Source: a virus (lineage: Duplodnaviria > Heunggongvirae > Uroviricota > Caudoviricetes). From it: a stretch of 24,594 nt of DNA. Location: the IMG/VR virus record IMGVR_UViG_2609459839_000005. One strand, written 5' to 3'. Position 1 is the first letter of the stretch. Every line of letters starts with the position of its first letter. This document shows positions 1,944-22,744 of the stretch, piece by piece. The notes below the pieces were generated by a model that ran no database searches, was not told the origin of the DNA, and worked only from the letters and a program-made list of their open reading frames with translations. A program made the position numbers and the translations under genes.

Positions 1944-1991
1944 ATGATAAAATTTTGTGATGGCGGTGAGGCTACACCGCCAAAGTCAATA

Positions 1992-6262: not shown

Positions 6263-6361
6263 TGTTTTTTAACCTCAACTCAGATTAAAATTACTGCGAG
6301 TGATGAATAAATGTCCCAGGTTCTTCACTCAGGCCTGCACACTGTGCAGGCTTTCTTTTTT

Positions 6362-6637: not shown

Positions 6638-6711
6638 GTTTTTCTCCTTAATTAAGGTTGAGCGAATCTCTACCATTTCTGGCATAAATTCAGTTTCGAA
6701 TAGTCAATTAA

Positions 6712-7511: not shown

Positions 7512-7664
7512 TTAGCTGGTATTTTTGGCAAGCCAGCGACGTGCGCCAGCTTCGGTTTTAAACGATTTGCTTTTGGTATACGTCATGGCGGTGAATGTGC
7601 CGTCCTGATTGGGAAACACGCCACATACCAGAGATTCGTTGTTGCCAAGATCGATAGTATCCAT
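7512..7664 (-). CDS. Small hypothetical protein (about 50 aa; YdaF-like by position)
   Basis: Internal ATG at 7664 (MDTIDLGNNESLVCGV...) is preceded by GAGG; track ORF is 7512..7727. No motif recognised. Confidence 0.35.
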   Translation of the reverse strand: MDTIDLGNNESLVCGVFPNQDGTFTAMTYTKSKSFKTEAGARRWLAKNTS

Positions 7665-7913
7665 GTTGACCTCATTTCCCCTTAACGCCGGGTGGCGGAA
7701 CGTTTTATCTACTGCGCTTTGTATCAATCAACAACTGCCGTCATGTTCGTATGCCTCAGGCTGGCTACTTAGCCCTGTTCAGTGGCTGGATAACTCGAGG
7801 TATTGTCCTGCCGTTCTCTGGTGGGGCGTTGTTTGGATATGTTTATTAAACACAATTCGTTTTCTCATGTCAACACGAAGTGTGTTTTATAGTGGGTGTC
7901 ATATGATGATGGT

Positions 7914-7939
7914 ACAAAAAAGCCCGCTGATAGCGGGCT
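7914..7939 (-). terminator. Rho-independent terminator downstream of the repressor gene
   Basis: Hairpin AGCCCGC-tgata-GCGGGCT, followed on the minus strand by a U-run (plus-strand A-run 7915-7920), 30 nt past the repressor stop. Confidence 0.55.
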
Positions 7940-7969
7940 GATTGGCATATTACTGTGATAGCAAGATCA

Positions 7970-8389
7970 TTACTCCGGTGGGGGATTATCTTTAAGCCTG
8001 CCTCTCAAATATTTTTCTACATACTCATCGATTTCTTTTAGCCGGACTTCAAATAGCTCAATCATTCGTTGTTGTTCTGAGCCCGGTAGCTGGTTAAACA
8101 ACTCAAGAAGTTTTCGTTGGGATTCATTTAACCACAATTCAGAAGATTCCTGTTCTCCAAAGAGGAGCTCAGGAGGAGATATGCCAAGTGCCTTTCCCAA
8201 TACGACAGCGTCATGCACTCCAACATTTCTGCTGCCCGCCTCATAGTTACCTATACGCGATTGCGTCCATCCGCAGATTTCAGCAAGTTTTCCTTGAGAT
8301 AAACCAAGCTTCTGCCTGCGCTCTTTAAGACGCATTGCAATTTTGTCATTGAGCCTACTAGCGGCAATTTTTTCGTTTTCTTTTTCCAT
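7970..8389 (-). CDS. racR: XRE-family HTH repressor (cI-like, RacR-like), 139 aa
   Basis: N-terminal helix-turn-helix (…LKERRQKLGLSQGKLAEICGWTQSRIGNYEAG…). Divergent from a Cro-like gene across a 96-bp region with inverted repeats. Confidence 0.75.
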   Translation of the reverse strand: MEKENEKIAASRLNDKIAMRLKERRQKLGLSQGKLAEICGWTQSRIGNYEAGSRNVGVHDAVVLGKALGISPPELLFGEQESSELWLNESQRKLLELFNQLPGSEQQRMIELFEVRLKEIDEYVEKYLRGRLKDNPPPE

Positions 8390-8400
8390 TGCATCCTTGT

Positions 8401-8461
8401 ATCACGAATCGTGATTTACATAAAACACAAAACAGCTTGACCATATAACACAAGATGTGTT
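8401..8461. promoter_or_regulatory. Immunity-region operator/promoter: two inverted repeats within the divergent intergenic region
   Basis: Perfect palindrome ATCACGA-a-TCGTGAT (8401-8415) and AACACA-aga-TGTGTT (8447-8461). The second lies in the spacer of a plus-strand promoter candidate (TTGACC 8437-8442, TTTAAA about 8460-8465). Confidence 0.4.
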
Positions 8462-8485
8462 TAAAATTGTCATCGGAGGTTTTCA

Positions 8486-9000
8486 ATGAACAAAATTTCA
8501 ACATATCGAAAACAGCTTGGGCTGTCTCAAAGACAACTTGCTGTTCAGTTACCACATCACGCAAAGTGGCTTCAACGCTGGCAATGGCAATCAGCAAAGG
8601 TCGTCTGATTCGCGTAAATCAGGGCGGTAAATTTCGTTACTGCATACCGGGCGATAATTTACCAGCAGAGCCGAAAGCAGCATCGGTAGCGGAAACTGAT
8701 GGTAAGGCCTTTCCTCAGCCCGCAGGTGTTGCATTACCAGTACAGGAGGCTGCAACACAGGAAGATATTAAAACAGAAACGGTGGTGGACATTGTGCAAT
8801 CGCTGCCATCGTTTACTGAAACGCGAGCGGATGACCTGGTTTTACCATCGCTGCATATGGCAAACCGCGAACTGCGTCGGGCGAAAAATCATGTCCAGAA
8901 GTGGGAGCGAGTCTGCGCCGCGCTGCGGGAGCTGAACAAGCACCGGGATATTGTTCGACAGATTGTCGATTCCTCCAGTCGTATTGTGTCGGAAAAGTGA
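8486..9000 (+). CDS. Cro/YdaS-like early gene with disrupted reading frame (possible pseudogene)
   Basis: ATG at 8486 with GGAGG 8 nt upstream opens [22 protein letters not shown]…, which stops after 40 codons (TGA 8606-8608). The long track ORF 8455..9000 is in a different frame and has no SD at its own ATG. Confidence 0.4.
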
Positions 9001-9015
9001 TTGCCGGAGGCACCT

Positions 9016-9438
9016 ATGGCAAAAGTATTTACACCAGAAGAGCGGGAAAAAATTAAAGGGCAGGTTGTTGAACTTGTACGTCTGAGCGGTCGCGAGACGT
9101 TACGGGCTCTGGAGGCTAAAACCGGTGCATCAAGGTATTACATAAGCACTCTCGCCAGAGAACTGGTCGCCAGTGGTGATGTTTACAATTCAGGCTACGG
9201 ATTATTCCCGTCTGAGCAGGCGCGTAAAGACTGGCAAAACGCCCGCAAAAAACTCTCAAGGGCAAATCTGAAGAAACCATCTGTGGTTGATCCGGATCTT
9301 ATCTGGTCATTACCAGACGGAGAAATACGCCGCTACAACAGGCGTCTGAACATAATTTGCCGTGAGTGCCGGAAGAGTGAGGTTATGCAGCGAGTGCTGG
9401 CGTTTTATCAGGGGAAATTTCAGGAGGTGATGCTGTGA
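9016..9438 (+). CDS. Hypothetical early protein, 140 aa (YdaT-like by size and position)
   Basis: ATG at 9016 (MAKVFTPEEREKIKG…) is preceded by GGAGG; track ORF starts at 9001. Position after the cro-like gene. Confidence 0.5.
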   Translation: MAKVFTPEEREKIKGQVVELVRLSGRETLRALEAKTGASRYYISTLARELVASGDVYNSGYGLFPSEQARKDWQNARKKLSRANLKKPSVVDPDLIWSLPDGEIRRYNRRLNIICRECRKSEVMQRVLAFYQGKFQEVML

Positions 9439-9689
9439 GCGAATCAAAATGTCAGGTTAATGGCAATCAGATAGAACCGTGTACGGCACTGGCAAAATCC
9501 CTTGAGCATGATGCTGAATACACGACGCGAAAAGGTCTGCTGATATACAAAATCTGGAATGAGAATTTAACTCGCGACCCTGATTTGGTGATGTTGCGTT
9601 CCGGTGAATTTTCTAAATTACCAGTGCGGGTTTCATTTTGTCCGTTCTGTGGTGAAAGTCTGAAAACGTGGGAGAACAGAAATGAATGA
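9435..9689 (+). CDS. Small Cys-motif protein (84 aa), putative zinc-ribbon
   Basis: GTG start overlapping the previous stop (GTGA), with CAGGAGG upstream. Contains KC…PC near the N-terminus and CPFCG near the C-terminus, the same motif as in the Lar-like protein. Confidence 0.45.
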   Translation: MSESKCQVNGNQIEPCTALAKSLEHDAEYTTRKGLLIYKIWNENLTRDPDLVMLRSGEFSKLPVRVSFCPFCGESLKTWENRNE

Positions 9690-9993
9690 AATTAGAGAAA
9701 TACCAGTAGTACGTGATGAATATGGCTGCTGGACGCATCCTGAATATGAAAAATTCTGTGATGGTAGAGAACTTATTTCAACGAAAGAGTTTAACGCCTG
9801 GATGGAGGAAAATAATCTTCAATACGTCCTCTGCTTCAGAGATGAAGGATGTGCTGACCTTGATGCGTGTGATGCTGATATTTCTGCATGGGAACCGGAA
9901 CGACCAGAGGGCAATGGATGGTTTATTGGTTCAATACATGACACCGAAGATGGCCCGGTTTGTGTATGGCTGAGAAATAAGGCCGAAGCATAA
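9682..9993 (+). CDS. Small strongly acidic hypothetical protein (103 aa)
   Basis: ATG overlaps the previous stop (ATGAATGA). About 24 Asp+Glu versus 9 Lys+Arg, plus scattered Cys. Confidence 0.5.
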   Translation: MNEIREIPVVRDEYGCWTHPEYEKFCDGRELISTKEFNAWMEENNLQYVLCFRDEGCADLDACDADISAWEPERPEGNGWFIGSIHDTEDGPVCVWLRNKAEA

Positions 9994-10298
9994 AGGCTAT
10001 AAACCGACTAACAACTAAATACTGAAGATTTAAATCAGAAACGATTTTTATTAAATCCTTAACCGGAGGGATTCTGCACCCTCAGAACATCAGGAGGCCG
10101 TCTGAAAGGGCGGAACAGATAATGCTTACGTTGAAACATTTTATCGACATACCAACATGGTTAGCCGTCATTGCTTTTGTTAAAATACACATCCACTTTT
10201 CTGTGCAATGTTTAACCACTGGTCATATCAAATGGCATTCATGCGAACCATGATATAGAATCATGGCTTGAGAGAGTCGATGAAAGCGCAACTATGGT

Positions 10299-10871
10299 AT
10301 GAGAGACATTGATGTAAGAAAGGCTGTGCATGCCAAGATTCTGAGAGATCATCATAAAGATCCTGACACCCTAATCATTGATGAGTTTACGATGAATCTA
10401 GGGGCTAGCAGAGCTGATATAGCAGTGATCAATGGGCTTATACATGGTTATGAGTTGAAGAGCAAGAGTGATAACTTGCTCAGATTACCAGCGCAGGTGC
10501 AACATTACTCATCAGTGATGGATAAAGTAACGTTGGTTGTCTCTGATTGCCATCTTTATGATGCTTTAAGCATAGTTCCATCATGGTGGGGGATAAAGCA
10601 AGTTACGCAAGGTGCACGGCAAGGTATCCATTTAAAAACAATTCGAACTAGCAAGTTGAATCCACAAGTGGACAAACTTTCCTTAACAATGCTTCTTTGG
10701 AAAGATGAATTGCTTTCCCTATTAAGTGATGTAGGGGAGCTACAGAATTTGAAAAATAAACCTAAACGCGTCTTATGGTCAAAACTCGCCAATAGTATGG
10801 ATGTTGGCGAGCTTCGTGAAGCTGTTCGAGTTAAACTTAAAGCCCGTAAAGAGTGGCGAGTTGCTCAATAA
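10299..10871 (+). CDS. PD-(D/E)xK-motif nuclease-like protein, 190 aa (first gene of candidate defence cassette)
   Basis: Translation has …IDEFTMNLGASRADIAVINGLIHGYELKSKSD…: Asp in a hydrophobic strand, then E-L-K about 12 residues later. AT-rich (about 35-40% GC in sampled 60-nt stretches). Weak SD, so the start is uncertain. Confidence 0.6.
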   Translation: MRDIDVRKAVHAKILRDHHKDPDTLIIDEFTMNLGASRADIAVINGLIHGYELKSKSDNLLRLPAQVQHYSSVMDKVTLVVSDCHLYDALSIVPSWWGIKQVTQGARQGIHLKTIRTSKLNPQVDKLSLTMLLWKDELLSLLSDVGELQNLKNKPKRVLWSKLANSMDVGELREAVRVKLKARKEWRVAQ

Positions 10872-11934
10872 CCTTAGTTATGTGATGGTTTTGCCCAATC
10901 CTACGCCATACCTCTGGGCTACCAAATTTATAGTTACCAGAGGGATTGGCTTTGTAGGCTTGATACTCGTTTGCATAATATTCTATGTCTCTATCTCCCG
11001 CACAGAATGTAGGCCCTGAATATTCTCGATGAGCAAGAATATCCTCACTATGTTTACCATATTGTTCATAACCAAAGCGATTAGCTACTCTTCCTCGAAA
11101 TACCCAAAAGTCATTATCTCCAGAGTATCTGACGCTGGCAGATACGCTAGGGAATCGCGTCGAAAGCCTATTAAAGTCGGGGTGCTGTACTCCATAATCA
11201 CTATAAATCACATTTCTGGCAAGTTCTTTTCTATTCATTAAACTCTGCCATAAAATCCACTCGATTCGAGGTTGAGAATATAGACCAACAGAAATATCAC
11301 TGAGATCTGTAGGAAATGAACCCCCAGAAAGAATCACTTTTCTGTATTCATTGAGGTGCGCCAGATTGTTTATCAATCCCATTGCCAAAGTATATAGTTC
11401 GCCGGAATTAAGTTTATCCTCGGTTAACTCATCTCTTAAGTCAATAATTATATCAATATTTGATAAAGGAATTCCCAGATGATTAATGTAATGCGTTATT
11501 AATTGTGGGTTAACCAGATCTAACGTGGTTAATCTCAAGCATATTTCATTCTGCATTAATTCATCAATCGCTCTTTTATAGTTAGATGGGCGAGTTGGTG
11601 AACTGACAGGAATAACTCTTATCCCCATATCTCTAACTTGATTAACCGCATTTATTATAGGGTAATGATCTTCAGGAGAAATAAAATGCTCTTCAATTAA
11701 TAATCCATCAATATAAACACCTTGCATATCTGAGCAAGATTTTGAGACTTTCTTTCCGAACTCTATAAGAGTCTCGTTATAACTCTTTAAGGCAATACCT
11801 GAATCAGGGTCAATTGGCACTGGTTCAATTTCGAGTAATGGCAAAATTTTTGATTTCTTTTCAATGGATAGCTGCGATAAAGCTGATAACTCAGAACGTT
11901 TCGCTTTCAGAATAGGAATATATGAAATTGTCAT
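10837..11934 (-). CDS. 365-aa partner protein of the cassette (possibly beta/sce7725-like family)
   Basis: Long clean AT-rich ORF (MTISYIPILKAKRSELSALSQL…) converging on the 190-aa gene, with 35 bp of 3' overlap. SD-like AAGG 7 nt ahead of the ATG. Family assignment is recollection only. Confidence 0.62.
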   Translation of the reverse strand: MTISYIPILKAKRSELSALSQLSIEKKSKILPLLEIEPVPIDPDSGIALKSYNETLIEFGKKVSKSCSDMQGVYIDGLLIEEHFISPEDHYPIINAVNQVRDMGIRVIPVSSPTRPSNYKRAIDELMQNEICLRLTTLDLVNPQLITHYINHLGIPLSNIDIIIDLRDELTEDKLNSGELYTLAMGLINNLAHLNEYRKVILSGGSFPTDLSDISVGLYSQPRIEWILWQSLMNRKELARNVIYSDYGVQHPDFNRLSTRFPSVSASVRYSGDNDFWVFRGRVANRFGYEQYGKHSEDILAHREYSGPTFCAGDRDIEYYANEYQAYKANPSGNYKFGSPEVWRRIGQNHHITKVIEQLATLYGL

Positions 11935-12286
11935 GTTAATACCTTATACAGAATCAATTAACAATTAATGGTTCTTCGGACATTGAAATTTATATCGCAA
12001 AAATTGGCAAACTCTCCTCGACTACTCACTTGTGGGTATCCTGGCGTAAAAGGAATGACTTGGCAATACCCGGTGTGATCATAAGTCATTGAAAATGATC
12101 ATTTTTATCAGTCTTTCTTCCATGATGAATGCTAATGCCATTTGATTTGTTGAGGTGAAAACTGTTAAAAATCAAAACGATGTAATTGAAATGAACGTTC
12201 GGTAGCATTCACGCTTTAAATGTTTCTTTTGTGCTGATTGGATGAATTTTGGTCACTTATGATGAGAGATGTTGCAGGAAAAGAAG

Positions 12287-12315
12287 TTGGCATTGATCTA
12301 TTGGATAGTTAGAAT
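12287..12315 (+). promoter_or_regulatory. Sigma70-type promoter candidate for the hok-family mRNA
   Basis: TTGGCA (12287-12292), 17-bp spacer, TAGAAT (12310-12315). Predicted transcript of about 415 nt to the terminator at about 12737, typical of hok mRNAs. Confidence 0.4.
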
Positions 12316-12490
12316 TGCTGCGGGTGCTTGAGGCTATCTGCCTCAGGCATGAACACCAAAAGGCAGATAGAGAAAAGCCCCAGTTAACATTACGCGTCCT
12401 GCAAGACGTTTAACATTAATCTGAGGCCATATCTATGCGACACATAGAGATTAGCCTCTTACGGACCGAAAGGTCAAGGAGAAGCAGGCT

Positions 12491-12646
12491 ATGAAGCAGC
12501 AAAAGGCGATGCTAATCGCCCTGATCGTCATCTGTTTAACCGTCATAGTGACGGCACTGGTAACGAGGAAAGACCTCTGCGAGGTACGAATCCGAACCGG
12601 CCAGACGGAGGTCGCTGTCTTCACAGCTTACGAACCTGAGGAGTAA
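12491..12646 (+). CDS. Hok/Gef-family type I toxin (51 aa, single TM segment)
   Basis: Not in the ORF track (below 60 aa). Hand translation: MKQQKAMLIALIVICLTVIVTALVTRKDLCEVRIRTGQTEVAVFTAYEPEE, with the Hok/Gef signature LVTRKDLCEV…RTGQ…EVAVF…AYE. AAGGAG lies 8-13 nt upstream. Confidence 0.82.
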   Translation: MKQQKAMLIALIVICLTVIVTALVTRKDLCEVRIRTGQTEVAVFTAYEPEE

Positions 12647-12713
12647 GAGACCAGGCGAGGGAGAAATCCCTCGCCACCTCTCATGTGTCAGGCATCCTCA
12701 ACGCACCCGCACT

Positions 12714-12737
12714 AAACCCGCTTCGGCGGGTTTTTTG
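12714..12737 (+). terminator. Rho-independent terminator of the hok-family transcript
   Basis: AAACCCGC-ttcg-GCGGGTTTTTT: GC-rich stem, tetraloop and T-run, about 70 nt past the hok stop. Confidence 0.65.
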
Positions 12738-12921
12738 TTGCGTGCTGAATGCGCAGGGTGAAAAATAACCATATATTTGATTATATACACAACAAAAAAT
12801 AAAAGTCATTGTACCTGCACATTAAATAATCAAATATACAGCGTGAAATAAATGTTTTTCAGATTAATATTTTTGTCTCTATGTGGATATAACCGTTTGT
12901 ACTTATAAACTCGGAGGCATC

Positions 12922-13134
12922 GTGGAAAAAATAAAGAAACTATTTAGTTGCAAATACGCAGTCATACGTCGTGATGACCTGTCAGTTATAGTCGAAATGG
13001 ATTACTTCCCTGACCCCCCAAAATCAATGATGTATCGTAATGGTCGAAAGGCAATTTTTTTACCGATGAGGGTAAGTGACATTATGGGAAATGATAAACT
13101 GCTGGATGAATTGCGAGTCAGAGCATCCTGTTAG
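12922..13134 (+). CDS. Hypothetical protein (about 70 aa)
   Basis: Track ORF 12883..13134. GTG at 12922 follows GGAGG (short spacer); the ATG at 12883 has no SD. No motif recognised. Confidence 0.3.
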   Translation: MEKIKKLFSCKYAVIRRDDLSVIVEMDYFPDPPKSMMYRNGRKAIFLPMRVSDIMGNDKLLDELRVRASC

Positions 13135-13205
13135 TATTGGCATTAATTCTGGTATACTACATAACGGGCTGAACACCCATTCTACTGCGCCAGCGGAGAA
13201 CTACG

Positions 13206-13805
13206 ATGGCGCATATACAACTGGTCAAACAAACCTCTTCCGGATTACTTCTCCCGGCGACGCCGGAGAGTTGCGATTTTTTGCATCAAATCAAAATAGG
13301 TGAGTGGATACACGCAGACTTTAAGCGTGTGCGTAACTACGCATTCCACAAGCGTTTTTTCAAACTCCTGCAACTGGGATTCGATTACTGGACTCCGGTC
13401 GGTGGGGCGATCACGCCTCGCGAACGAAAACTGGTATCAGGCTTCGTTGATTACCTGTGCGAATCAGTAGGTCGGGAACACACTCCAGCCCTGAGTGATG
13501 CCGCAGAGCAATACCTTAATACAGTTGCGACATGCAGAACCCGGGATACGGCATTGCTAAAGTCGTTTGACGCTTTCCGCGAGTGGGTAACCATTCAGGC
13601 CGGATTTTACACCGAGCATATTTATCCTGATGGTAGTCGTGGGCGCAGGGCAAAATCTATCGCATTTGCGAACATGGACGAAACCGAGTTTCAGCAGGTT
13701 TATAAATCTGTACTGAATGTGCTGTGGAACTGGATCCTGTTCCGTAAATTTTCCTCTCCGGAGGAAGTCGAAAATGTGGCCGCGCAGTTACTGGAGTTTG
13801 CGTAA
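13206..13805 (+). CDS. Nin-region phage protein, 199 aa (possibly DUF1367/YbcN-like)
   Basis: ATG preceded by GGAGA. First gene of a tightly packed plus-strand block that ends in a Q-like gene. Confidence 0.5.
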   Translation: MAHIQLVKQTSSGLLLPATPESCDFLHQIKIGEWIHADFKRVRNYAFHKRFFKLLQLGFDYWTPVGGAITPRERKLVSGFVDYLCESVGREHTPALSDAAEQYLNTVATCRTRDTALLKSFDAFREWVTIQAGFYTEHIYPDGSRGRRAKSIAFANMDETEFQQVYKSVLNVLWNWILFRKFSSPEEVENVAAQLLEFA

Positions 13806-14095
13806 TGGTGGATTTACGTAAAGCGGCGCGGGGGCAGATGTGCACCGTCAGAATTCCTGGCTACTGCAATCACAATCCCGAAACTTCTGTGCTGGCGCAT
13901 TACAGGCTGGCGGGGACGTGCGGAACAGCGATAAAGCCACACGATATGCAGGCAGCGATTGCCTGTAGCTCGTGCCACGATTTAATCGACGGGCGGGTAA
14001 AAACCAGCGATTACACCAAAGAAGAATTACGCCTGATGCATGCAGAAGGTGTTTTTCGCACACAAGAAATCTGGAGAAAGGAGGGATATTTATGA
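13805..14095 (+). CDS. YbcO-like small Cys/His-rich protein (DUF1364-type putative nuclease), 96 aa
   Basis: MVDLRKAARGQMCTVRIPGYCNHNPETSVLAHYRL…IACSSCHDLIDGR, with conserved Cys/His spacing as recalled for DLP12 YbcO. Start overlaps the previous stop. Confidence 0.55.
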   Translation: MVDLRKAARGQMCTVRIPGYCNHNPETSVLAHYRLAGTCGTAIKPHDMQAAIACSSCHDLIDGRVKTSDYTKEELRLMHAEGVFRTQEIWRKEGYL

Positions 14096-14634
14096 TTTAC
14101 CCAACGAATACAGGAAAAAGCGGAGAACACCTTCGTCTCACCACGCTGGAAAGTGTCTGGATTCAGGGAAAACTGCGCATGTGGGGGCGCTGGTCGTATA
14201 TTGGCGGCGGTAAGACGGGGAATATGTTCAACCAGTTGTTGGCCTCTAAAAAGCTGACAAAAACGGCAATTAACGAGGCGCTCCGGAGGATGAAAAAAGC
14301 AGGTCTGAACAAGTCTGAACTTGAGGCTTTTTTGCGGGATATGATTAACGGTAAGCAAAAGAGCTGGCTGGCGCATTGTACTGATGCAGAGGCGTTATGT
14401 ATTGATCGGGTGATTAGTGAAGTGCTGGCAGAACACCCAGGATTGATTTTTATCCTCCGGCAACGATATGAAGGAAGGGGGATGACTAAGCGAAAAATGG
14501 CTGAATTGCTAAATGATGCACACCCTGAGTGGTGTTTTAGCACATGCGAAAAGCGAATTGCTAATTGGTTGGCTGTTGCTGAGTATGCGCTGTACGTTCC
14601 CATGCGAGAATCATTCGCTCAAAAAATAGCTTGA
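14092..14634 (+). CDS. Putative late-gene antiterminator (Q-like), 180 aa
   Basis: ATG at 14092 overlaps the upstream stop (ATGA) and follows AGGAGG. Last gene before a non-coding stretch with a hairpin plus T-run, tRNAs and lysis genes. Assignment is by position; no motif confirmed. Confidence 0.45.
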   Translation: MIYPTNTGKSGEHLRLTTLESVWIQGKLRMWGRWSYIGGGKTGNMFNQLLASKKLTKTAINEALRRMKKAGLNKSELEAFLRDMINGKQKSWLAHCTDAEALCIDRVISEVLAEHPGLIFILRQRYEGRGMTKRKMAELLNDAHPEWCFSTCEKRIANWLAVAEYALYVPMRESFAQKIA

Positions 14635-14990
14635 TTTTTTACGCATAAACTGCTTCAATTCCGGTATGCTTCGCAAAGCTGTATCGCGAGGCGAATAGCA
14701 GTTTTGAACATCTAAAGACCCCGTTTAATGCGGGTTTTTTTATGCCCAAAAACGAAGTAGTGCGTTAAAATGTGATGGTCGGGAGTATACAGACTTTTAT
14801 ATAGCACTGCGTAAAAATCAATTTATCCGGGGTAAATGTCAATTTGCTTATTAAAAAAAACAAAAAGATAAATTTATAGCAATTGTGTTTCTTTGGGTTG
14901 AAAGTTTTAATGTCGTCAGTATTATCTGAAGCGGTTCTGAGGAGGGGGTTTCCATTGCTCGGCCACGATACTTCCGAGGAACCAATTAAC

Positions 14991-15066
<76 letters not shown>

Positions 15067-15069
15067 TAT

Positions 15070-15144
<75 letters not shown>

Positions 15145-15190
15145 GCAGAGGACGATGCTAGGCTGTTTCAGGCACTGACACATTATATGT

Positions 15191-15469
15191 GTGGGATGTT
15201 TTACCCTAACTCCTTACCACATCCTGTTCTGTAATGAATATTATTTATTACGGTACCAGTGTTGTTTTTTTACAATAGTGGAATGGTGCATTACTGGTGG
15301 AGATTTGTATTTCCTGGCAGGGCTGGTAATGTATCATTCCGGTGTTGTAAATAACACCCCAGAGACGTTCCTCAGTGCGAGGGTGGTTGAAAGAGTCGGT
15401 TTTGCGGGAAACCACAGCATCCATGCAGGACTGGATGTTTCGGGAGGCACCCGACGTCTCTGGTCATAA
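15191..15469 (+). CDS. Hypothetical ORF (92 aa), doubtful
   Basis: Track ORF only; no SD and odd composition. Sits where cargo genes lie in some lambdoid phages, but shows no similarity to Stx A subunits as I recall them. Confidence 0.2.
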   Translation: MGCFTLTPYHILFCNEYYLLRYQCCFFTIVEWCITGGDLYFLAGLVMYHSGVVNNTPETFLSARVVERVGFAGNHSIHAGLDVSGGTRRLWS

Positions 15470-15508
15470 TAAAATCATAGTGTTCTCTTCATGCCATTTT
15501 ATGCCATA

Positions 15509-15534
15509 GACCGCCACGCCAGGCGGTTTTTTTT
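15509..15534 (+). terminator. Rho-independent terminator
   Basis: CCGCC-acgcca-GGCGG followed by a T8 run. Confidence 0.55.
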
Positions 15535-15716
15535 ATTCAGAATTCAGTATTTATGCGGCTCGCTACGGCGGGCCTTTTTCATATCCGCGCCACGCCCGGC
15601 GCATATCAAAAACCACAGAGCCTTTCAGGGGTGAGCTTACGGGATGGTCAGTGTGACTTTCTCTGTGGGCTGGTCACCCCCGGGCGCAGGCCCACCCACT
15701 AAGAGGAAACGTCACT

Positions 15717-16143
15717 ATGTTTGGTATTTTCAAAAAGAAAACCCGCAAGGCCATTACTGAAGTGAAGAAAATGGAGAACCGCGACGCGGTGGAGGCGACC
15801 GTCTGGGGTGCATATTCCATTGCATACGCTGACGGCACCTGTGACGCGAAAGAAATCGCGGTACTGGAAAAAAACCATTGCAGCACTTCCTGTCTTTGCG
15901 CCGTTCTCCGGTGAGATTGCACAAATGAGTGCAAATATCCGCGCCCGTTATGAAGCGTCGCCGCGTTCTGCCAATGCCGAAGCTCTTCGTCAGCTGGCTG
16001 ATGTTGCCGGTACTGATGATGCAGTTAATGTGCTGTGCCTGTGTCTGGATATCGCTGACCAGGACGGTATCGGTCAGGAAGAAGAAGCGCAACTGAAGAA
16101 AATTGCGCAGGCGCTGCAGTTGCCGCTGGAGCAGTACCTGTGA
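15717..16143 (+). pseudogene. TerB-like protein gene interrupted by a +1 frameshift in an A7 tract
   Basis: Track ORFs 15717..15914 and 15808..16143 join into one TerB-like protein (…AYADGTCDAKEIAVLEK|TIAALPVF…DDAVNVLCLCLDIADQDGIGQEEEAQLKKIAQALQLP) if the A-run at 15868-15874 were 6 or 9 nt. GAGG upstream of the ATG. Confidence 0.5.
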
Positions 16144-16292
16144 AAAGTGCGCGCCTTGTGCTGGCTGTCATCCTGTTGTTTCTGGTAGTGGTGGTTGATT
16201 TCACCGGACGACTGATGTCGGTGCTGGCAGATGGTGTGCTGGTGGCGATGGCGCTGGTCGTGCTCCGGCCTTTACTGCGTAAATCTGAATAA
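16140..16292 (+). CDS. Small hydrophobic membrane peptide (about 50 aa), GTG start
   Basis: Hand translation VKSARLVLAVILLFLVVVVDFTGRLMSVLADGVLVAMALVVLRPLLRKSE. GTG overlaps the TerB-like stop (GTGA). No SD, so speculative. Confidence 0.3.
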   Translation: MKSARLVLAVILLFLVVVVDFTGRLMSVLADGVLVAMALVVLRPLLRKSE

Positions 16293-16302
16293 CATCACAC
16301 AA

Positions 16303-16340
16303 AAGGCATCTGCGGATGCCTTTGACGGGGTGTTTTTTAC
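16303..16340 (+). terminator. Hairpin plus T-run (terminator-like)
   Basis: GGCATC-tgcg-GATGCC followed by TTTgacggggtgTTTTTT. The interrupted T-run makes this weak. Confidence 0.3.
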
Positions 16341-16378
16341 GGGTCGCTGGTGGCCCTTTTTTATTTTCAGGAGGAAGT

Positions 16379-16771
16379 ATGTCTGAACCCTTATCCGGTT
16401 CCGGCACGGCTGCGGCGCTGGGTGGCGCGACGGTATTCGGGCTGTTTACCGGGATGGATTTCGGGATTGTGTTTGGCGCGTTCGCCGGGGCGTTATTTGT
16501 GGCAACGATGCCGCAGTCACTTTCAGTCTGGCGCGTGGTGGCACATTTTCTGGTGTCGTTTATTGTCGGCGTGCTGGGAGCGCGTGTGCTGTCAGCCTGG
16601 ATTGCATCAAAAACAGGGTATGACGGTACATCAGCAGATGCGCTTTGCGCGGTGCTGGTCTCGGTTGTGTCGGTGAAGATTCTCTCGTTCATCCACCAGC
16701 AGGATATTGCATCGCTGGTGTCCGGTGTGTTCTCCCGCCTGCGGGGTGGAGGAGGCGGCAATGTTAAGTAA
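16379..16771 (+). CDS. Holin-like membrane protein (about 130 aa, Gly/Ala-rich TM segments)
   Basis: ATG at 16379 after AGGAGG. Three predicted hydrophobic segments, directly upstream of a second membrane protein and the endolysin remnant. Confidence 0.5.
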   Translation: MSEPLSGSGTAAALGGATVFGLFTGMDFGIVFGAFAGALFVATMPQSLSVWRVVAHFLVSFIVGVLGARVLSAWIASKTGYDGTSADALCAVLVSVVSVKILSFIHQQDIASLVSGVFSRLRGGGGGNVK

Positions 16772-17036
16772 CCTTCCCGGATTGCTGAATGTGGTGTTAT
16801 GCACAGTTATCGTGCTGACGCTCTTTTTTTATCGTCGCCGTGATTCCAGACATAAACCGCTGGTGTCATGGCTGGCCTGGCTGCTGATGCTGCTGTATGC
16901 CTTTGCGCCCCTCAGTTATCTGTGTGGTCGCCCGTTAGCAACGGGCTGGCTGGAAGTGTTTTTTAACCTGCTGTTCTGCGTGCTGGTGATACGCGCACGC
17001 GGGAACGTCACAAAAATCTTTCCATTGTTGAGGTGA
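16761..17036 (+). CDS. Second small membrane protein of the lysis cassette (holin/antiholin-like, 91 aa)
   Basis: ATG at 16761 after GGAGG, overlapping the previous gene. Two or three TM segments and a basic stretch (YRRRDSRHK). Confidence 0.45.
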   Translation: MLSNLPGLLNVVLCTVIVLTLFFYRRRDSRHKPLVSWLAWLLMLLYAFAPLSYLCGRPLATGWLEVFFNLLFCVLVIRARGNVTKIFPLLR

Positions 17037-17038
17037 AT

Positions 17039-17254
17039 ATGTCGGGTAAATTCAGATTTAGTCGTCGCAGCGAAAAGAATCTGGAGGGCGTTAAACCACA
17101 GCTGGTTGCTGTCGTTCGCCGTGCGCTGGAGCTGACGGAGGTTGATTTCGGTATTACGGAAGGGCTGCGCACGAAAGAACGCCAGAAACAGCTGGTCGCG
17201 GAAGGGAAAAGCCAGACCATGAACAGCCGCCAGCTTTATAGCGTGGATAGATAA
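17039..17254 (+). pseudogene. Truncated endolysin (T5-type L-alanyl-D-glutamate peptidase, M15 family), N-terminal about 70 aa only
   Basis: MSGKFRFSRRSEKNLEGVKPQLVAVVRRALELTEVDFGITEGLRTKERQ… matches my recollection of the T5 Lys N-terminus. ORF stops at …TMNSRQLYSVDR, where the catalytic SxHxxGxAxD motif should be (His replaced by Gln). Confidence 0.6.
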
Positions 17255-17615
17255 CAATGCCGAGTCTTGAGGAATTATTCCTGCGCAGCAGTGCATCGTG
17301 CAGCAGATTTACCCGGACTACTATGTGAACATGGTTCAGCAACAGTTTGCCGGCTATTTTGCATCATTGGCAATTTCAAAGGTAGATGGAGCAGATAACC
17401 CCACCTATAACATCGATGTTGTGTTTTTTAATGGGACCAGTTACCGGACGCAGGTGCCGGTATGAATCACAGTTTTATGATAAAACTTTTACCTTGGTTT
17501 GGAGTGCTGTAGAGAGATATTTTAGGGGAGGCGAGTAATTTTCTAAGCTGGAGCATATTGACATATATTATTTCGGATTTGCAAAATACAGATTGTAACC
17601 ATGGAGGAGACAAGC

Positions 17616-18776
17616 ATGGAAAATTTTGCAAATAAGTTAAAAATACACACAGAGCATGTTGCAAAAATGGGGGTGTTTTGTACAACTGAAGAAACGACAA
17701 AACAAGCACTCATTATGCCATTACTAGATATTCTTGGTTTTACTCCGTATGATCCAAGAAAAGTCAAAGCTGAGTATAGTGCTGACTTCCCCGGGGTTAA
17801 GGCTAATGAACGGGTTGATTACGCTTTATTTTGTCATGATGTTCCTGTGATGTTCATTGAGGCGAAATCGTTTTCAGAACAAATTGATAATCACTGCCCA
17901 CAGCTATCAAGATATTTTAATTCAACACCGGAAGTTACTATATCAGCCATTACAAATGGTGTTGAATGGCGTTTTTTTACGGATTTGAAACAAAAAAACA
18001 TAATGGATTCAACGCCGTTTTTAAAATTAAGAATGGATTCTCTAACTCACTCCGATATTACACAATTATTTCGTTTTCGTTATGATAAATTCAAACCAGA
18101 GGCTTTACGGACACTGGCTGAAGAAAGTGTTTATTTGAATTCATTTACTAAAACAATCAGTTCTAGTCTTCGTGAAGTTGATCTGGAGTTTGTTCGATAT
18201 GTTGCTAGTCGTTCAAATATTGAGAGGCAACTTAATCAGAGATTTCTTGAGTTCGTGACTCCATTAGTTAAACAGGCCGTTGAGCGCGCTGTTAGCGCAA
18301 TGGTGGTTTCCGGGCTATCTACACAACCGGTAGAGCAAACTAAAGAAAATGATGCAACGGATACACAAGTTAATAACGCCATTGTTGATGAAGAAAACCC
18401 CAACATAATAACCACAGCCAAAGAATTGGAGCTATTTGAAAGGGTAAAACAAATCATACAAACAGAAGATAATATAGAATATAAAGATACTGAGTCATAT
18501 TTCGGTGTACTATTGAATGGTAAAACTAATAGATGGCTGTTAAGATTTTATGATAAAAAATCTTCATTTATAACTTTACCTATTTCGCTTAGTGAAGTTC
18601 AGTTGAATGAAATAAGACGAGCTCGACTTGATACGGATGGTAAAAGGATACATATAACTAATCCGGAAGATATACTTCGCATATCTGGTTTGATTCTGGA
18701 TTCATACGAGTATGTTAAAAATGATGATAATTTCCGCCGAGGGTCCAGAGTGAGCAGTTTAGAAGAGGTTGAATAA
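17616..18776 (+). CDS. 386-aa protein with N-terminal HsdR-N/Mrr-like PD-ExK nuclease motif and uncharacterised C-terminal domain
   Basis: N-terminus …TKQALIMPLLDILGF…KAEYSADFPGVKANERVDYALFCH-DVPVMFIEAKS… gives an E…D-x13-E-A-K arrangement. ATG at 17616 after GGAGGA. AT-rich (about 35% GC in a sampled stretch), own promoter candidate and a strong terminator. Confidence 0.68.
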   Translation: MENFANKLKIHTEHVAKMGVFCTTEETTKQALIMPLLDILGFTPYDPRKVKAEYSADFPGVKANERVDYALFCHDVPVMFIEAKSFSEQIDNHCPQLSRYFNSTPEVTISAITNGVEWRFFTDLKQKNIMDSTPFLKLRMDSLTHSDITQLFRFRYDKFKPEALRTLAEESVYLNSFTKTISSSLREVDLEFVRYVASRSNIERQLNQRFLEFVTPLVKQAVERAVSAMVVSGLSTQPVEQTKENDATDTQVNNAIVDEENPNIITTAKELELFERVKQIIQTEDNIEYKDTESYFGVLLNGKTNRWLLRFYDKKSSFITLPISLSEVQLNEIRRARLDTDGKRIHITNPEDILRISGLILDSYEYVKNDDNFRRGSRVSSLEEVE

Positions 18777-18778
18777 GT

Positions 18779-18806
18779 AAAAAACCCGCGAAAGCGGGTT
18801 TTTTAA
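18779..18806 (+). terminator. Rho-independent terminator
   Basis: AAAACCCGC-gaaa-GCGGGTTTTTT immediately after the stop of the 386-aa gene. Confidence 0.7.
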
Positions 18807-18816
18807 TGGAGTAAAT

Positions 18817-20043
18817 ATGTCAGAAATACCAATTACTATGACCAGTGCGGGTGCGCAGCCTACGCCACCCAATGATTTGCTCGCGAATCTTATCACTAGA
18901 GTTGCTGAAAAAGTACCTGGATATACAGCCAACCTTCCGGCGGGGCTTATTACAGACCTTGCCAGCACGGCTGTCGGGGCGCTGGCATTAATAGACCAGG
19001 CGCGGGTGGACCTTATTAACTCCGTAAGCCCATACGGCGCGAATATTCCGTTACTGATGCAACTCGGAAACATATATGGAGCACAGAAGGGATTAAGTAC
19101 AAATACGGCGGTATACGTGGTGTTTGAGGCGTTGCCGGGGTTTGGTATCCCTAAAGGATTTGTTGTCGGTGACGGCAACTACCAGTATGCGGTTTCCCGC
19201 GATACCGTGGTACCGGAAAACGGGCAGACTGAGCCAGTCTACTGTGTGGCCACAACGTCAGGCTCATGGGCTGTACCGGAAGGGACCGTGACGCAGGTCA
19301 TTACCTCAGTACCCAAAGACCAGCCTGTAAAATGCACCAACTTTACCGCAGGAATGCCCGGTCAGGAGGCGCAAACGTGGGCATCTTACCGCGCCGAAGT
19401 CATGGAGTCCGGCATGTTTGGTGTGCAGGGAACACCGGATTGCTTTAAAGCTATGCTCAAATCAGTAAGCGGTGTGCGAGAAAACCTGATTTCTTTCCGG
19501 CAGTCGTCGCTGGGGAAATGGGTTGCGGTTGTTGGTGGCGGTGATCCGTATGATGTGGCTTATGCGATTTACAAATCTGTACCGGATATTTCGAAACTGA
19601 CCAACGATGTAAGCAATCCATCCGGTGCGGCAGTGGAAAAACGCACGGTTTCAATAACCGTTTCGCCGGACGTTTATCAGGTGCCTTTCGTTATCCCGTC
19701 ATCACAAAACGTCATGGTGCTAATCACCTGGAACACGGTGTCTGATGATTATGTTGATCCGGCGGGTATTGCTATGGCTGTGCAGCAAAACGTTGCTGAT
19801 TACATCAATTCAATTGAAGTCGGACACCCGATAAATCTTCTGCGTATCCAGGATATTTTTACCAGTTCTGTCAGGTTGCTGGTTGATGCGACGTTGATCT
19901 CAACAATCAGTGTGAGCATTGGTATTAACGGTCATATTGTTCTTCCGGCGAAAGACACAAGCCTGGTTTATGGCGATACCTATTCCTATTTTTCAACGGT
20001 GGCATCACAGGTTCAGGTCAACAAGTATGCAATATCTGACTGA
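18817..20043 (+). CDS. Baseplate J/gp47-like protein, 408 aa
   Basis: First gene of a co-directional tail block; size and position fit a Mu/P2-type baseplate protein ahead of a DUF2313-like gene and fibre genes. Assignment from module context. Confidence 0.5.
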   Translation: MSEIPITMTSAGAQPTPPNDLLANLITRVAEKVPGYTANLPAGLITDLASTAVGALALIDQARVDLINSVSPYGANIPLLMQLGNIYGAQKGLSTNTAVYVVFEALPGFGIPKGFVVGDGNYQYAVSRDTVVPENGQTEPVYCVATTSGSWAVPEGTVTQVITSVPKDQPVKCTNFTAGMPGQEAQTWASYRAEVMESGMFGVQGTPDCFKAMLKSVSGVRENLISFRQSSLGKWVAVVGGGDPYDVAYAIYKSVPDISKLTNDVSNPSGAAVEKRTVSITVSPDVYQVPFVIPSSQNVMVLITWNTVSDDYVDPAGIAMAVQQNVADYINSIEVGHPINLLRIQDIFTSSVRLLVDATLISTISVSIGINGHIVLPAKDTSLVYGDTYSYFSTVASQVQVNKYAISD

Positions 20044-20653
20044 GAAAATTCTCCCTGCTTATCCATTTGCGCAGTACAGAGATGATCCGAATGTTGTTGC
20101 GTTCTTTGATGCATACAATGAAATTGCTCAGGAATACCTCGATTCACTCAACAATCTGGCATTGCCATGCTGGACATCGGAATCAATAACCGGGCAATTA
20201 CTGGACTGGATTGCACTCGGGATTTATGGCGTTGAAAGGCCTTTACTACAGGTTTCCGAGGAGGCTATTGCACGCGGCGCATACGATACCATTGAATACA
20301 ATACGATCCCGTATGCAGCAATGCGGAATTATGTTCCGGGGCAGGCATCGTATGTACCTGATGATTATTTCAAACGAATATTAACGTGGAATTTTTATAA
20401 GGCTGACGGTTCGCATTTCTGCATTGACTGGTTAAAGCGCCGTGTGGCGCGGTTCATTCATGGGAAAAACGGAATAGACCCGCCGTTGCAGCACACTTTT
20501 GATGTGAGCGTGACTGTATCGGACAGTGTTTTTTCTATTCAGATACCAGAATATGGTGATGGTATAGGCTATTTTCTGAAAGATGCCATTGACCAGAAAT
20601 ATGTAAAACTCCCTTTTATTTATTCCTATGCAACAACGGTGATTCAAAAATGA
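20027..20653 (+). CDS. Tail protein (Mu gp48 / P2 gpI / YmfQ-like), about 208 aa
   Basis: Internal ATG at 20027 (MQYLTEKILPAYPF…) chosen because the track start at 19919 overlaps the upstream gene by over 100 nt. Lies between baseplate and fibre genes. Confidence 0.45.
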   Translation: MQYLTEKILPAYPFAQYRDDPNVVAFFDAYNEIAQEYLDSLNNLALPCWTSESITGQLLDWIALGIYGVERPLLQVSEEAIARGAYDTIEYNTIPYAAMRNYVPGQASYVPDDYFKRILTWNFYKADGSHFCIDWLKRRVARFIHGKNGIDPPLQHTFDVSVTVSDSVFSIQIPEYGDGIGYFLKDAIDQKYVKLPFIYSYATTVIQK

Positions 20654-22200
20654 TTCTTGGATTCGGCAATAACGTTGTTTCAGCACTGGCTGGTGATATT
20701 ACGACGATTCAGACTGATATTCCGGTGATGCCGGGCACGGGAGCTAAATTTGCAAAATTGCTTTCTGCCGATTTTGAAAATAAATCGAACGGGCAACGCG
20801 TCTATGCAAAAATTACGCTTACCGATAATAAAGAGTCAGCGTTTGAGATTTGTCACCTGGTATCGGTAAGCGGTGATGTGCTGAAAGTCATTCGTGGGCA
20901 GGAAGGAACAACCGCGAAAGGTTGGTCCCTTAATGACGTTGTGGCTAACTTTGCCACACGTGGATCGGAAAACTATTTCGTACAGATAGCGCAGCTTCAG
21001 AGCGGTCATTATATTGCAGGTGTCGCTGGCGGCACTGCAAATGCACTGACGCTGGAGCTTCCCGCGACGTTTTTTGTTAATGGAGGTACAGATTGGACGC
21101 TACGAACTCCTATTATCGTTTTCCCCGTTCAGAACAATACCAACGCCGCAACGCTTCAATTGACACTGGGCGGAAAGGTTCTTGGTACGTTTCCACTTTA
21201 TAAGGGGAACAAGTCCGGGCTGGTAGCGAACGATATCATTAAAGGTATTCCCTTAATTTGCCTTCTTGATAGCGAGAAAAGCTATTTCAGCGTGATAAAC
21301 CCCGGCAATATCTATTCAGATTTTGATCTGCGATATGTAAAAAAATCTGGTGATTTGATGACCGGGGAGCTGAAAATCCGTGGTGTTAATGCACTGAGGA
21401 TTTTCAACGACGCTTTTGGTCTGATTTTTCGTCGTTCGGAAGAGTGCCTGCACCTTATTCCTACCAGTGAAGGTCAGGGCGAGAATGGCGATATTGGTCC
21501 ACTTCGACCGTTCACTATTAATCTGCGGACGGGTGAAATATCCATGTCGCATAAAGTGTCTGTTGGCGGTGGTTCTCAGGTCAATGGTGCGCTGGGTATC
21601 GGCGTTCAGAACGCGCTGGGCGGAAACTCAATTGCTTTCGGGGATAACGATACAGATATAAAACAAAACGGCGACGGCATTCTGGATGTTTATGCGAATG
21701 GACAGCATGTATTTCGTTTCCAGAATGGTGTGGCGATAGCGTTAAAAAATATTCAGGCCGGAAATGCTAAAAAATTCACGTTATCCAGCGCCAACAACTC
21801 AACGAAAAACGCAACGTTTAATTTATGGGGCAATTCGTCCCGTCCTGTAGTTGCAGAGCTTGGTGATGATTCCGGCTGGCATTTTTACAGCCAGAGAAAT
21901 ACGGATAACAGTATAACGTTCGCTGTAAACGGACAGATGGTCCCGTCAAATTATGGAAATTTCGATGCCCGTTACCAGACCAAATCAGGGGGCGTGCAGA
22001 ATTTTCAGTACACCAGTGAGGTGTTTTACAACCCTGGTGGGAATGAGCGCAGCTGGACGTTTCGGGCACCTTCTGGTTGTGTTTTGTCAGGCATTAATGT
22101 TCAGGACACTGGCAGTAACTCTGCAGATAATATCGGTGGCGTGTATTACAAACAGGCTCAGATTTATATCAATGGTGCATGGCGATCCGTATCAGGTTAA
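20650..22200 (+). CDS. Tail fibre protein, 516 aa
   Basis: Start overlaps the previous stop (ATGA). Gly/Asn/Ser-rich beta-type composition, immediately followed by a tail-fibre assembly gene. Confidence 0.55.
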   Translation: MILGFGNNVVSALAGDITTIQTDIPVMPGTGAKFAKLLSADFENKSNGQRVYAKITLTDNKESAFEICHLVSVSGDVLKVIRGQEGTTAKGWSLNDVVANFATRGSENYFVQIAQLQSGHYIAGVAGGTANALTLELPATFFVNGGTDWTLRTPIIVFPVQNNTNAATLQLTLGGKVLGTFPLYKGNKSGLVANDIIKGIPLICLLDSEKSYFSVINPGNIYSDFDLRYVKKSGDLMTGELKIRGVNALRIFNDAFGLIFRRSEECLHLIPTSEGQGENGDIGPLRPFTINLRTGEISMSHKVSVGGGSQVNGALGIGVQNALGGNSIAFGDNDTDIKQNGDGILDVYANGQHVFRFQNGVAIALKNIQAGNAKKFTLSSANNSTKNATFNLWGNSSRPVVAELGDDSGWHFYSQRNTDNSITFAVNGQMVPSNYGNFDARYQTKSGGVQNFQYTSEVFYNPGGNERSWTFRAPSGCVLSGINVQDTGSNSADNIGGVYYKQAQIYINGAWRSVSG

Positions 22201-22213
22201 TTAAGGAGAAATA

Positions 22214-22744
22214 ATGGAACTCGTAAACGTTACGCGTTACTACCCTGAAGATATGCCTTATGGTGAAGGCATTCAGTATTTCCGTAGTGAAGACGGGCAG
22301 GATTTTTATGAATCACTGGATAAGTTCACGAAGAAATACAAGCTGTGCACACATCCTGAAACCGGCGTTATTTATTCCATGGCGGAAGATGTATCCCGCC
22401 TTTATCCCGTTGGTTTTACCATTGTGGAAGTGGATGAACTACCGGAAGGATTTTGTATTGAAGCCCGCTGGTATTATAAAGACGGTGAAGTACTGCCGGT
22501 CCCTGTTGACTACCGGCAGCAGGCCGAGTCGGAGCGTGCACGTCTTACTGCGATTGCCGAACGGGAAATATCCGATAAGAAGACGGATTTACTTCTGGGA
22601 ATCATCAGTGATGAAGAAAAAGAAAAGTTGACAGCCTGGCGCATTTACGCGAAATCGCTGCAGGCGATGGATTTCAGCACCATCGCTGATAAAACCTCAT
22701 ATAACGCCATTGAATGGCCCGTCTCTCCGGAAGCCTCTTCCTGA
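22214..22744 (+). CDS. Tail fibre assembly protein (Tfa), 176 aa
   Basis: AAGGAG upstream. C-terminal …LLLGIISDEEKEKLTAWRIYAKSLQAMD… matches the conserved Tfa chaperone motif. Confidence 0.75.
   Translation: MELVNVTRYYPEDMPYGEGIQYFRSEDGQDFYESLDKFTKKYKLCTHPETGVIYSMAEDVSRLYPVGFTIVEVDELPEGFCIEARWYYKDGEVLPVPVDYRQQAESERARLTAIAEREISDKKTDLLLGIISDEEKEKLTAWRIYAKSLQAMDFSTIADKTSYNAIEWPVSPEASS

Follow-up and report, generated by a model that had tools for sequence, protein, structure and literature searches.

The stretch of DNA analyzed here, hereafter the window, is the whole of IMG/VR virus record IMGVR_UViG_2609459839_000005 (24,594 nucleotides), a Rac-type prophage of Escherichia coli integrated beside ttcA. 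At its center of interest is a cassette of 1,332 bp (17477-18808) made up of a promoter-like site, a ribosome-binding site, a single gene, and a strong terminator. The gene encodes a 386-residue protein that appears to be a stand-alone nuclease carrying additional, non-nuclease regions. The parts of the cassette and of the protein are listed below, with amino acid (aa) numbering that of the 386-residue product.

17477-18808, plus strand: cargo (moron) cassette, recognized by homology breaks, GC contrast, and presence or absence among E. coli genomes
17558-17587, plus strand: candidate sigma-70-like promoter (TTGACA, 18 nt, CAAAAT), a consensus match only
17604-17610, plus strand: ribosome-binding site GGAGGAG, 5 nt before the ATG at 17616, read from the sequence
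17616-18776, plus strand: nuclease coding sequence, 386 aa, with 100% DNA identity to the RefSeq gene of WP_000426903.1 ("type I restriction endonuclease")
17616-18035, plus strand: N-terminal HsdR-type PD-(D/E)xK nuclease domain, aa 1-140
17772-17774, 17817-17819, 17859-17861, and 17865-17867, plus strand: catalytic codons E53, D68, E82, and K84, respectively
17901-17903 and 17913-17915, plus strand: QxxxY motif codons Q96 and Y100
18036-18314, plus strand: conserved all-helical middle region, aa 141-233
18315-18377, plus strand: hypervariable acidic linker, aa 234-254, predicted to be disordered (predicted local distance difference test, pLDDT, <50)
18378-18725, plus strand: compact C-terminal alpha/beta domain, aa 255-370 (~115 residues), with a predicted fold like YdhG/DUF1801 and the YjbR/MotA C-terminal domain "double-wing" group
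18778-18805, plus strand: intrinsic-terminator hairpin found by folding, with a GC-rich stem, a GAAA loop, and an A run and a T run on either side

Homology to phages Rac-SA53 and vB_Apl-pPE4 breaks sharply, stopping at 17476 and starting again at 18809, and therefore 17477-18808 is taken as the mobile unit. Essentially the same limits (17467-18806) had been proposed in an earlier sequence-only reading, which described a self-contained, AT-rich gene for an HsdR-N/Mrr-like nuclease fused to an unknown domain. The contrast in composition was borne out (35.9% GC in the cassette versus 51-52% in the flanks), and GC at third codon positions is 26% in the nuclease gene against 44-59% in adjacent genes. 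The exact TTGACA noted at 17558-17563 forms, with an 18-nt spacer and CAAAAT, a site with 10 of 12 consensus matches, the best promoter-like site between 17200 and 19000; its geometry would place the start of transcription near 17594, before the ribosome-binding site. Since sites of this kind are about twice as common here as in shuffled sequence, it is regarded as a candidate. The strong terminator was also recovered: the hairpin at 18778-18805 folds with -17.4 kcal/mol (z = -5.8), and none of 200 shuffles folded as well. A pattern-based terminator scanner, unlike folding, returned no terminator for the region, since the flanking A run is itself paired with the T run. The region encloses an open reading frame (ORF) at 17601-18776 (plus strand, 391 aa), but 17601 is not the true start. 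In the 34 aligned homologues, without exception, and in the RefSeq annotation the protein starts at residue 6 of this frame, so that the true coding sequence is 17616-18776, as is also supported by GGAGGAG upstream. With transcription signals of its own (the promoter being a candidate), deviant composition, and presence or absence at a fixed slot, the unit has the features of a moron or lysogenic-conversion cassette.

The nuclease gene is exchangeable prophage cargo, as had been suspected from its setting. In intact relatives the slot lies inside the baseplate module, between a gene for a 115-aa protein and the baseplate J gene, and in Rac-SA53 and vB_Apl-pPE4 it holds a minus-strand antirepressor gene together with one or two hypothetical genes. 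A query made by joining the two flanks found the slot in 84 E. coli complete genomes. Among the six slot-spanning genomes listed, two carry the nuclease gene and four carry AntA/AntB antirepressor genes, to which an LprI-family gene is added in some. The cassette itself was found at an identity of at least 99% in 25 of the 84 E. coli genomes. The family is rare in this species (33 of 5,426 complete genomes) and occupies three different prophage slots in E. coli alone. In the window the cassette places its terminator within a late operon. Q-modified polymerase reads through terminators, and a lambdoid phage can thus tolerate such an arrangement.

The surroundings of the slot in the window were shaped by a deletion, the edges of which are given here.

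17233-17275, no strand: deletion junction, 43 bp unmatched in the intact prophage, at which a truncated endolysin gene is fused to the baseplate-module remnant
17276-17465, plus strand: 3' remnant of the rac59-like baseplate-module gene for the 115-aa protein, left flank of the slot
18817-20043, plus strand: baseplate J gene, right flank of the slot (Pfam Baseplate_J, 2.5e-7, and annotation)

Strain 214-4 has the prophage in intact form, and against it the window lacks 20.2 kb, comprising the terminase/packaging, portal, head, and most tail genes. Positions 8550-17232 of the window correspond to 12203-20891 of that prophage (L027 numbering), where the match ends in the middle of an M15 endolysin gene of which 73 codons remain (junction region 17033-17275). 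Positions 17276-21728 correspond to 41128-45579 (L027 numbering), and here the match restarts within the gene for the 115-aa protein. The window prophage is defective, having lost all head genes and most tail genes, while the nuclease cassette is intact. The earlier placement of the gene between lysis and tail genes is therefore correct for the window but not for its native site, since it was the deletion that brought the endolysin gene next to the slot.

Residues 25-128 match Pfam HSDR_N and HSDR_N_2 above the gathering thresholds. The motif D68-x13-E82-A-K84 is present, and Q96xxxY100 corresponds to the QxxxY motif of RecB and HsdR, mutation of which slows or abolishes cleavage in EcoR124I (PMC2475608). 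In an alignment of 88 sequences (~26-86% identity), the invariant positions of the N-terminal domain include K29, E53, D68, E82, K84, Q96, and Y100. The E...D-x13-EAK arrangement that the sequence-only reading had pointed out (E53, D68, E82, and K84) is thus conserved throughout. Judged by fold and catalytic motifs, the N-terminal domain looks like an intact nuclease. Of the "HsdR-N/Mrr-like" assignment only the HsdR part held; an Mrr-type nuclease was rejected, as Mrr_cat was matched by just one of 35 relatives, and weakly. Against NCBIfam, the only match was far below threshold, to the type I endonuclease equivalog (18.9 bits versus a cut-off of 729).

The remainder of the protein had been read as a single unknown C-terminal domain of about 250 aa. 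It resolves instead into a helical region, an acidic linker, and a YdhG/YjbR-like domain of ~115 residues. A first AlphaFold model, built from 35 close homologues, was too weak (pLDDT 67.8) and was replaced; a Foldseek search of the PDB with it gave no match at E ≤0.001. The second model, from the 88-sequence alignment with its distant members, reached a pLDDT of 87.1 and separates four parts (residues 1-140, 141-233, 234-254, and 255-370), with a predicted template modeling score (pTM) of 0.54 that leaves their arrangement undefined. The linker has a mean identity of 12-16%, a length of 16-34 residues, and an isoelectric point (pI) of ~4.2. Among Enterobacterales, family members share with the window protein, on average, 81% identity in the nuclease, 79% in the helical region, 61% in the C-terminal domain, and 16% in the linker. 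Compared with the nuclease, the linker and the C-terminal domain thus evolve faster, as would fit a specificity or sensor module, and D291 and Y295 are invariant C-terminal residues in the 88-sequence alignment.

Based on the second model, the C-terminal domain is predicted to fold like YdhG/DUF1801 and the YjbR/MotA "double-wing" group. YjbR, PSPTO_3016, and the MotA C-terminal domain form this DNA-binding group, which includes the DNA-bound C-terminal domain of T4 MotA, and YjbR domains occur fused to GIY-YIG and PLD nucleases in defense-type, restriction-like contexts (PMC7641849). YjbR also has a distant structural relative in the 5-methylcytosine-reading domain of McrB (PMC3424535). For the window protein, it is the predicted fold of the C-terminal domain, not its charge, that makes DNA binding plausible. 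Other searches were less informative. Single-sequence and profile searches of solved structures gave chance matches only (haemagglutinin and chemoreceptor helices), which were rejected. A viral fold library returned one further member of the family and nothing else, and scanning ten diverse C-terminal domains against Pfam at E values up to 10 found nothing meaningful.

The protein is a full-length member of a large family of stand-alone HSDR_N proteins of ~350-390 aa, consisting of nuclease, helical region, and C-terminal domain. It matches PHROG 4225 ("endonuclease", category DNA, RNA and nucleotide metabolism) at 1e-148 over residues 6-375. Matching clusters at 50% identity numbered 3,356 at E ≤1e-3 and 290 at ≤1e-30, and most of the 150 clusters listed are ~350-400 aa long and aligned over most of their length. 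At 90% identity, more than 5,000 clusters match the family profile, including clusters from Clostridium, Bacillus, Methanococcus, and Methanocella; because they share the same short full-length architecture, the 386-aa protein is not a fragment. Some relatives are named "predicted type IV restriction endonuclease" by the Joint Genome Institute, and COG2810 was grouped with HSDR_N in a census of PD-(D/E)xK proteins (PMC3424549). The family spans bacteria and archaea (Proteobacteria, Firmicutes, Actinobacteria, Bacteroidetes, spirochaete plasmid-prophages, and some archaea). It is present in 19 deposited phage genomes, mostly temperate, and on plasmids, with distant members (~26% identity) on ~20 Borrelia/Borreliella plasmids. 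Its members go under inconsistent names, among them "type I restriction endonuclease", "subunit R", "predicted type IV restriction endonuclease", "DUF450", "prophage Lp2 protein 6", and "DNA polymerase III subunit epsilon".

The genomic setting of relatives was compared in 16 hand-picked lineages, one of them metagenomic, which do not amount to a statistical survey. In 10 of these 16 contexts the nuclease gene stands directly after, and co-oriented with, the maintenance repressor gene of a prophage.

Clostridium phage-plasmid of the CWou-2020a type: nuclease after the repressor, co-oriented
Citrobacter lambdoid prophages: 22 nt after a cI with S24 domain, co-oriented
Salmonella Mu-like prophages: nuclease after the repressor, co-oriented
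Bacillus prophages: nuclease after the repressor, co-oriented
Gut Firmicutes prophages: nuclease after the repressor, co-oriented
S. pneumoniae phage IPP25: repressor, small gene, nuclease, integrase, in this order
Klebsiella phage KpF5: nuclease after the repressor, co-oriented
Carboxydothermus prophage: 20 nt after a cI-S24 gene, co-oriented
Yersinia myovirus-type prophages: 36 nt downstream of an Mnt/Arc-type repressor, co-oriented; the immI-like island lies within the tail module
E. coli RacR-type prophage: nuclease after the repressor, co-oriented

Such a position behind the repressor suggests expression in lysogens. The place beside or behind the maintenance repressor is the classical site of superinfection-exclusion and lysogenic-conversion genes (lambda rexAB, sie2009, P22 immI). 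Where family members lie among late genes, they are on the opposite strand or, as in the window, have signals of their own. Two alleles lie on the strand opposite to the late genes: one, 87% identical, between antiterminator Q and the lysis genes; the other, with 78% DNA identity, in an E. coli Stx2 prophage between antiterminator Q and a block of methylase, tRNA, and stx2AB genes (1506-6649, L035 numbering). Methanococcus and Gilliamella carry the nuclease gene singly, surrounded by chromosomal housekeeping genes. No conserved methyltransferase, helicase, or other partner was found next to the nuclease across the contexts examined, and its neighbors differ in every lineage. Together with the solitary chromosomal genes, this indicates that the nuclease works without a fixed partner. 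Hidden Markov model (HMM) searches, structure-based searches, and a neighborhood survey, all suggested by the sequence-only reading, thus yielded the HSDR_N and PHROG 4225 matches, the double-wing-like fold, and the repressor-adjacent relatives, respectively; no search assigned the protein to a structural or housekeeping family, and the catalytic residues proved to be conserved among homologues.

Two of these contexts merit separate description. In the Salmonella Mu-like prophage (7001-9000, L012 numbering) the nuclease gene and a D12-class adenine methyltransferase gene converge, 62 bp apart, in the only lineage seen with a methylase next to the nuclease; this could be a coincidence or a lineage-specific pairing akin to restriction-modification. 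In Yersinia, a P22 immI-like island among baseplate genes (5472-7164, L033 numbering) has the order Arc, Mnt-like repressor, nuclease homologue. In a sister contig the place of this island is taken by a P22-type antirepressor. The island parallels the slot of the window, since that slot holds antirepressor genes in other Rac-type phages.

Several known systems resemble the window protein in part. Type I HsdR (EcoR124I, PDB 2w00; HsdR fragment 3h1t) shares the PD-(D/E)xK nuclease domain with its D...ExK and QxxxY motifs, but it also has a superfamily 2 (SF2) translocase and works with HsdM and HsdS. The window protein has neither, is about one third as long, and adds the helical region and the double-wing-like domain. 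Helicase/translocase families (ResIII, Helicase_C) were absent from the window protein and 35 relatives, in which only HSDR_N families matched, and no hsdM or hsdS was found among the ORFs of the window, in the intact prophage, or in the contexts examined. Lacking a helicase motor, a methyltransferase, and a conserved partner, the protein is poorly served by its database name of "type I restriction endonuclease", which is misleading. Type IIG/IIL enzymes (BpuSI, 3s1s; DrdV, 7lo5) have a similar N-terminal nuclease and helical connector, but continue into methyltransferase and target-recognition domains that are both missing here. Closer in organization are the single-chain Type IV enzymes (PvuRts1I/AbaSI, MspJI, and the McrB-N reader), in which a solitary nuclease without cognate methyltransferase is likewise accompanied by a separate candidate DNA-recognition domain; none of the recognized modified-base readers (SRA, EVE/PUA, YTH, McrB-N, or the Mrr-N winged helix) was found in the window protein.

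The C-terminal domain resembles MmcQ/YjbR (PF04237), DUF1801/YdhG, and the T4 MotA C-terminal domain in predicted fold, but it has no sequence-level Pfam match and is net acidic. The literature consulted describes no fusion of such a double-wing domain to an HsdR-N nuclease. With the exclusion genes of prophage immunity regions (lambda rexAB, lactococcal sie2009, Salmonella BstA, P22 immI) the family shares its site by the repressor and its orientation. Their products, however, are unrelated to it and are not HsdR-type nucleases. There was no conserved adjacent gene in the contexts examined that would make it part of a toxin-antitoxin or two-gene abortive-infection module. Fillol-Salom and colleagues reportedly described, in 2022, a single "HsdR-like" gene with anti-phage activity borne on phage-inducible chromosomal islands (PICI), which DefenseFinder lists as FS_HsdR_like. 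The present family could be the same as that system, in which case the window gene would be a new member of a known system.

Taken together, the data lead us to favor, with somewhat better than even confidence, a restriction-like defense nuclease that is expressed in the lysogen and whose C-terminal domain supplies target discrimination. A defensive role is preferred because an intact-looking nuclease is carried as exchangeable cargo, typically in a region that is transcribed in the lysogen and classically houses exclusion genes. Also in favor of this role, the gene survived while 20 kb of virion genes were lost from the same prophage. The sequence-only reading had placed the gene among defense or abortive-infection cargo, a suggestion that appears better founded now that relatives are seen to sit in prophage lysogeny modules. 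In the mechanism that we infer, an autonomous Rac-type prophage cassette would encode a single-chain, Mg-dependent endonuclease of the HsdR-N PD-(D/E)xK type, tethered through the helical region and the flexible acidic linker to a YdhG/YjbR-like double-wing domain. Transcription in the lysogen would start from its own promoter in the window, and would come from the repressor operon in most relatives. Resident DNA would be left unharmed. On incoming foreign phage DNA, the C-terminal domain would bind and recognize some feature, be it a base modification, a sequence, or a structure, and the tethered nuclease would then cut, thereby restricting the superinfecting phage. The whole would amount to a Type IV-like, methyltransferase-independent restriction serving as prophage defense against superinfection.

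A number of observations weigh against this interpretation. The -10 element of the cassette, CAAAAT, is weak, and promoter-like sites, frequent in AT-rich DNA, were counted 10 times where shuffles gave 5.3. The contexts of relatives were picked by hand. The best structural match of the C-terminal domain, YdhG/DUF1801, has no known function. In addition, the domain is net acidic (pI 5.0 in the window protein, family mean 5.7), so that a generic DNA-binding surface is not favored; net charge, once considered as support for DNA binding, was dropped for this reason. Among the 5,027 defense-protein models of PADLOC-DB 2.0.0 there was no match at E ≤1 for the window protein, and none at 1e-3 for four diverse members of the family (the window protein and three distant relatives). 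Finally, no experimental work on any member of the family was found in the literature searched.

The main rival is a trigger-activated abortive-infection nuclease, to which we give a minor but real chance. Here the enzyme would be auto-inhibited, and the C-terminal domain would sense a phage protein or a small molecule; once triggered, the nuclease would degrade host and phage DNA alike and kill the cell. An acidic C-terminal domain whose top match is a YdhG-like protein of unknown function would be compatible with a sensor of this kind. However, its fold group has a proven DNA binder in the MotA C-terminal domain (PMC7641849), no conserved partner or antitoxin accompanies the gene, and nothing in the data points to auto-inhibition, the pTM being too low to define how the domains are arranged. 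It is unlikely that the enzyme serves the life cycle of the phage itself, by processing or recombining DNA, by degrading host DNA after induction, or by attacking competing prophages or satellites during lytic growth. The PHROGs category and the name "endonuclease" would agree with such a function, as would the occurrence of the family in 19 deposited phage genomes, and phage recombination modules often include PD-(D/E)xK nucleases. Yet a gene of the life cycle would hardly be missing from most relatives of each phage type and swapped for unrelated cargo, be co-oriented with repressors and opposed to the early and late lytic operons, persist in a prophage no longer able to make virions, or occur as a solitary chromosomal gene.

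Even less probable is a selfish element, that is, a homing- or addiction-like nuclease that spreads or retains its own cassette with no benefit to host or phage. Its sharp boundaries, its presence in several unrelated slots of related phages, and its presence or absence at the slot are what such an element would show, but the insertion sites differ and have no evident common target, full-length conservation across phyla is strong, and there is no antitoxin or immunity partner. That the protein is a true type I restriction R subunit, or the remnant of one, working with HsdM and HsdS of the host, seems very improbable. The RefSeq product name implies it and the nuclease domain is truly HsdR-like; nevertheless the missing motor contradicts it, the protein having only 386 residues and no helicase/translocase domain, the partner genes are lacking from the window and the intact prophage, and the short full-length architecture is common to the thousands of clusters described above. 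We thus retain restriction-like defense by the lysogen as the preferred interpretation.

Other features of the window bear on the prophage rather than on the nuclease.

1-1236: intR
3095-6262, minus strand: recE
13972-14634: DUF1133/antiterminator-Q-like gene, by comparison with related loci
16316-16771 and 16707-17036: holins (Pfam)

A second AT-rich island (10299-11934, 34-39% GC) contains two overlapping convergent genes, one for a 190-aa protein (PADLOC "cll", 2.4e-28; RefSeq "sce7726 family") and the other for a 365-aa Beta_protein (PF14350, 3e-52; PADLOC PD-Lambda-2_C, 1.7e-41). Judging from these matches, the island looks like part of a gop-beta-cII/PD-Lambda-2-type defense module. A portion of ~3.1 kb of the immunity/early region of the strain 214-4 prophage (9051-12202, L027 numbering) has no counterpart at 8551 of the window, and conversely the tail-fiber segment at 21729-22591 has no match in that prophage. 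These differences, at 8551 and at 21728-22592, are mosaic variation typical of such phages. In an intact relative (19520-19711, L001 numbering; deleted from the window), a stretch of ~190 bp between a baseplate protein gene and the gene for the 115-aa protein matches hundreds of E. coli genomes. Its best match falls at 80-90% identity in 872 records (~83% in those listed), mostly without annotated feature, and it represents a prophage intergenic element or small ORF that is both widespread and conserved.

The gene studied here is an ordinary member of a catalogued family, a stand-alone restriction-type nuclease borne by mobile elements; what is noteworthy is the size of the family, its placement by repressors, and its reader-like domain. 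A broader proposal can be made, although only tentatively. The family may be a widespread and unrecognized group of single-chain restriction enzymes, carried as a standard passenger of the repressor operon in temperate phages of many phyla, in which a double-wing reader would tell invading from resident DNA, whether modified or otherwise marked. If so, Type IV-like restriction would gain a new reader fold, and the frequent misannotation as "type I restriction endonuclease" in prophage lysogeny modules would be explained. As a single-gene system it is easy to test, and it may provide a possible new DNA-recognition module on a well-understood nuclease, of interest to phage-host ecology and possibly as a tool enzyme. 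Should the defensive role hold, thousands of prophages would carry a one-gene nuclease as a lysogen-expressed shield, hidden under a misleading label and absent from at least one major catalogue of defense systems (PADLOC).

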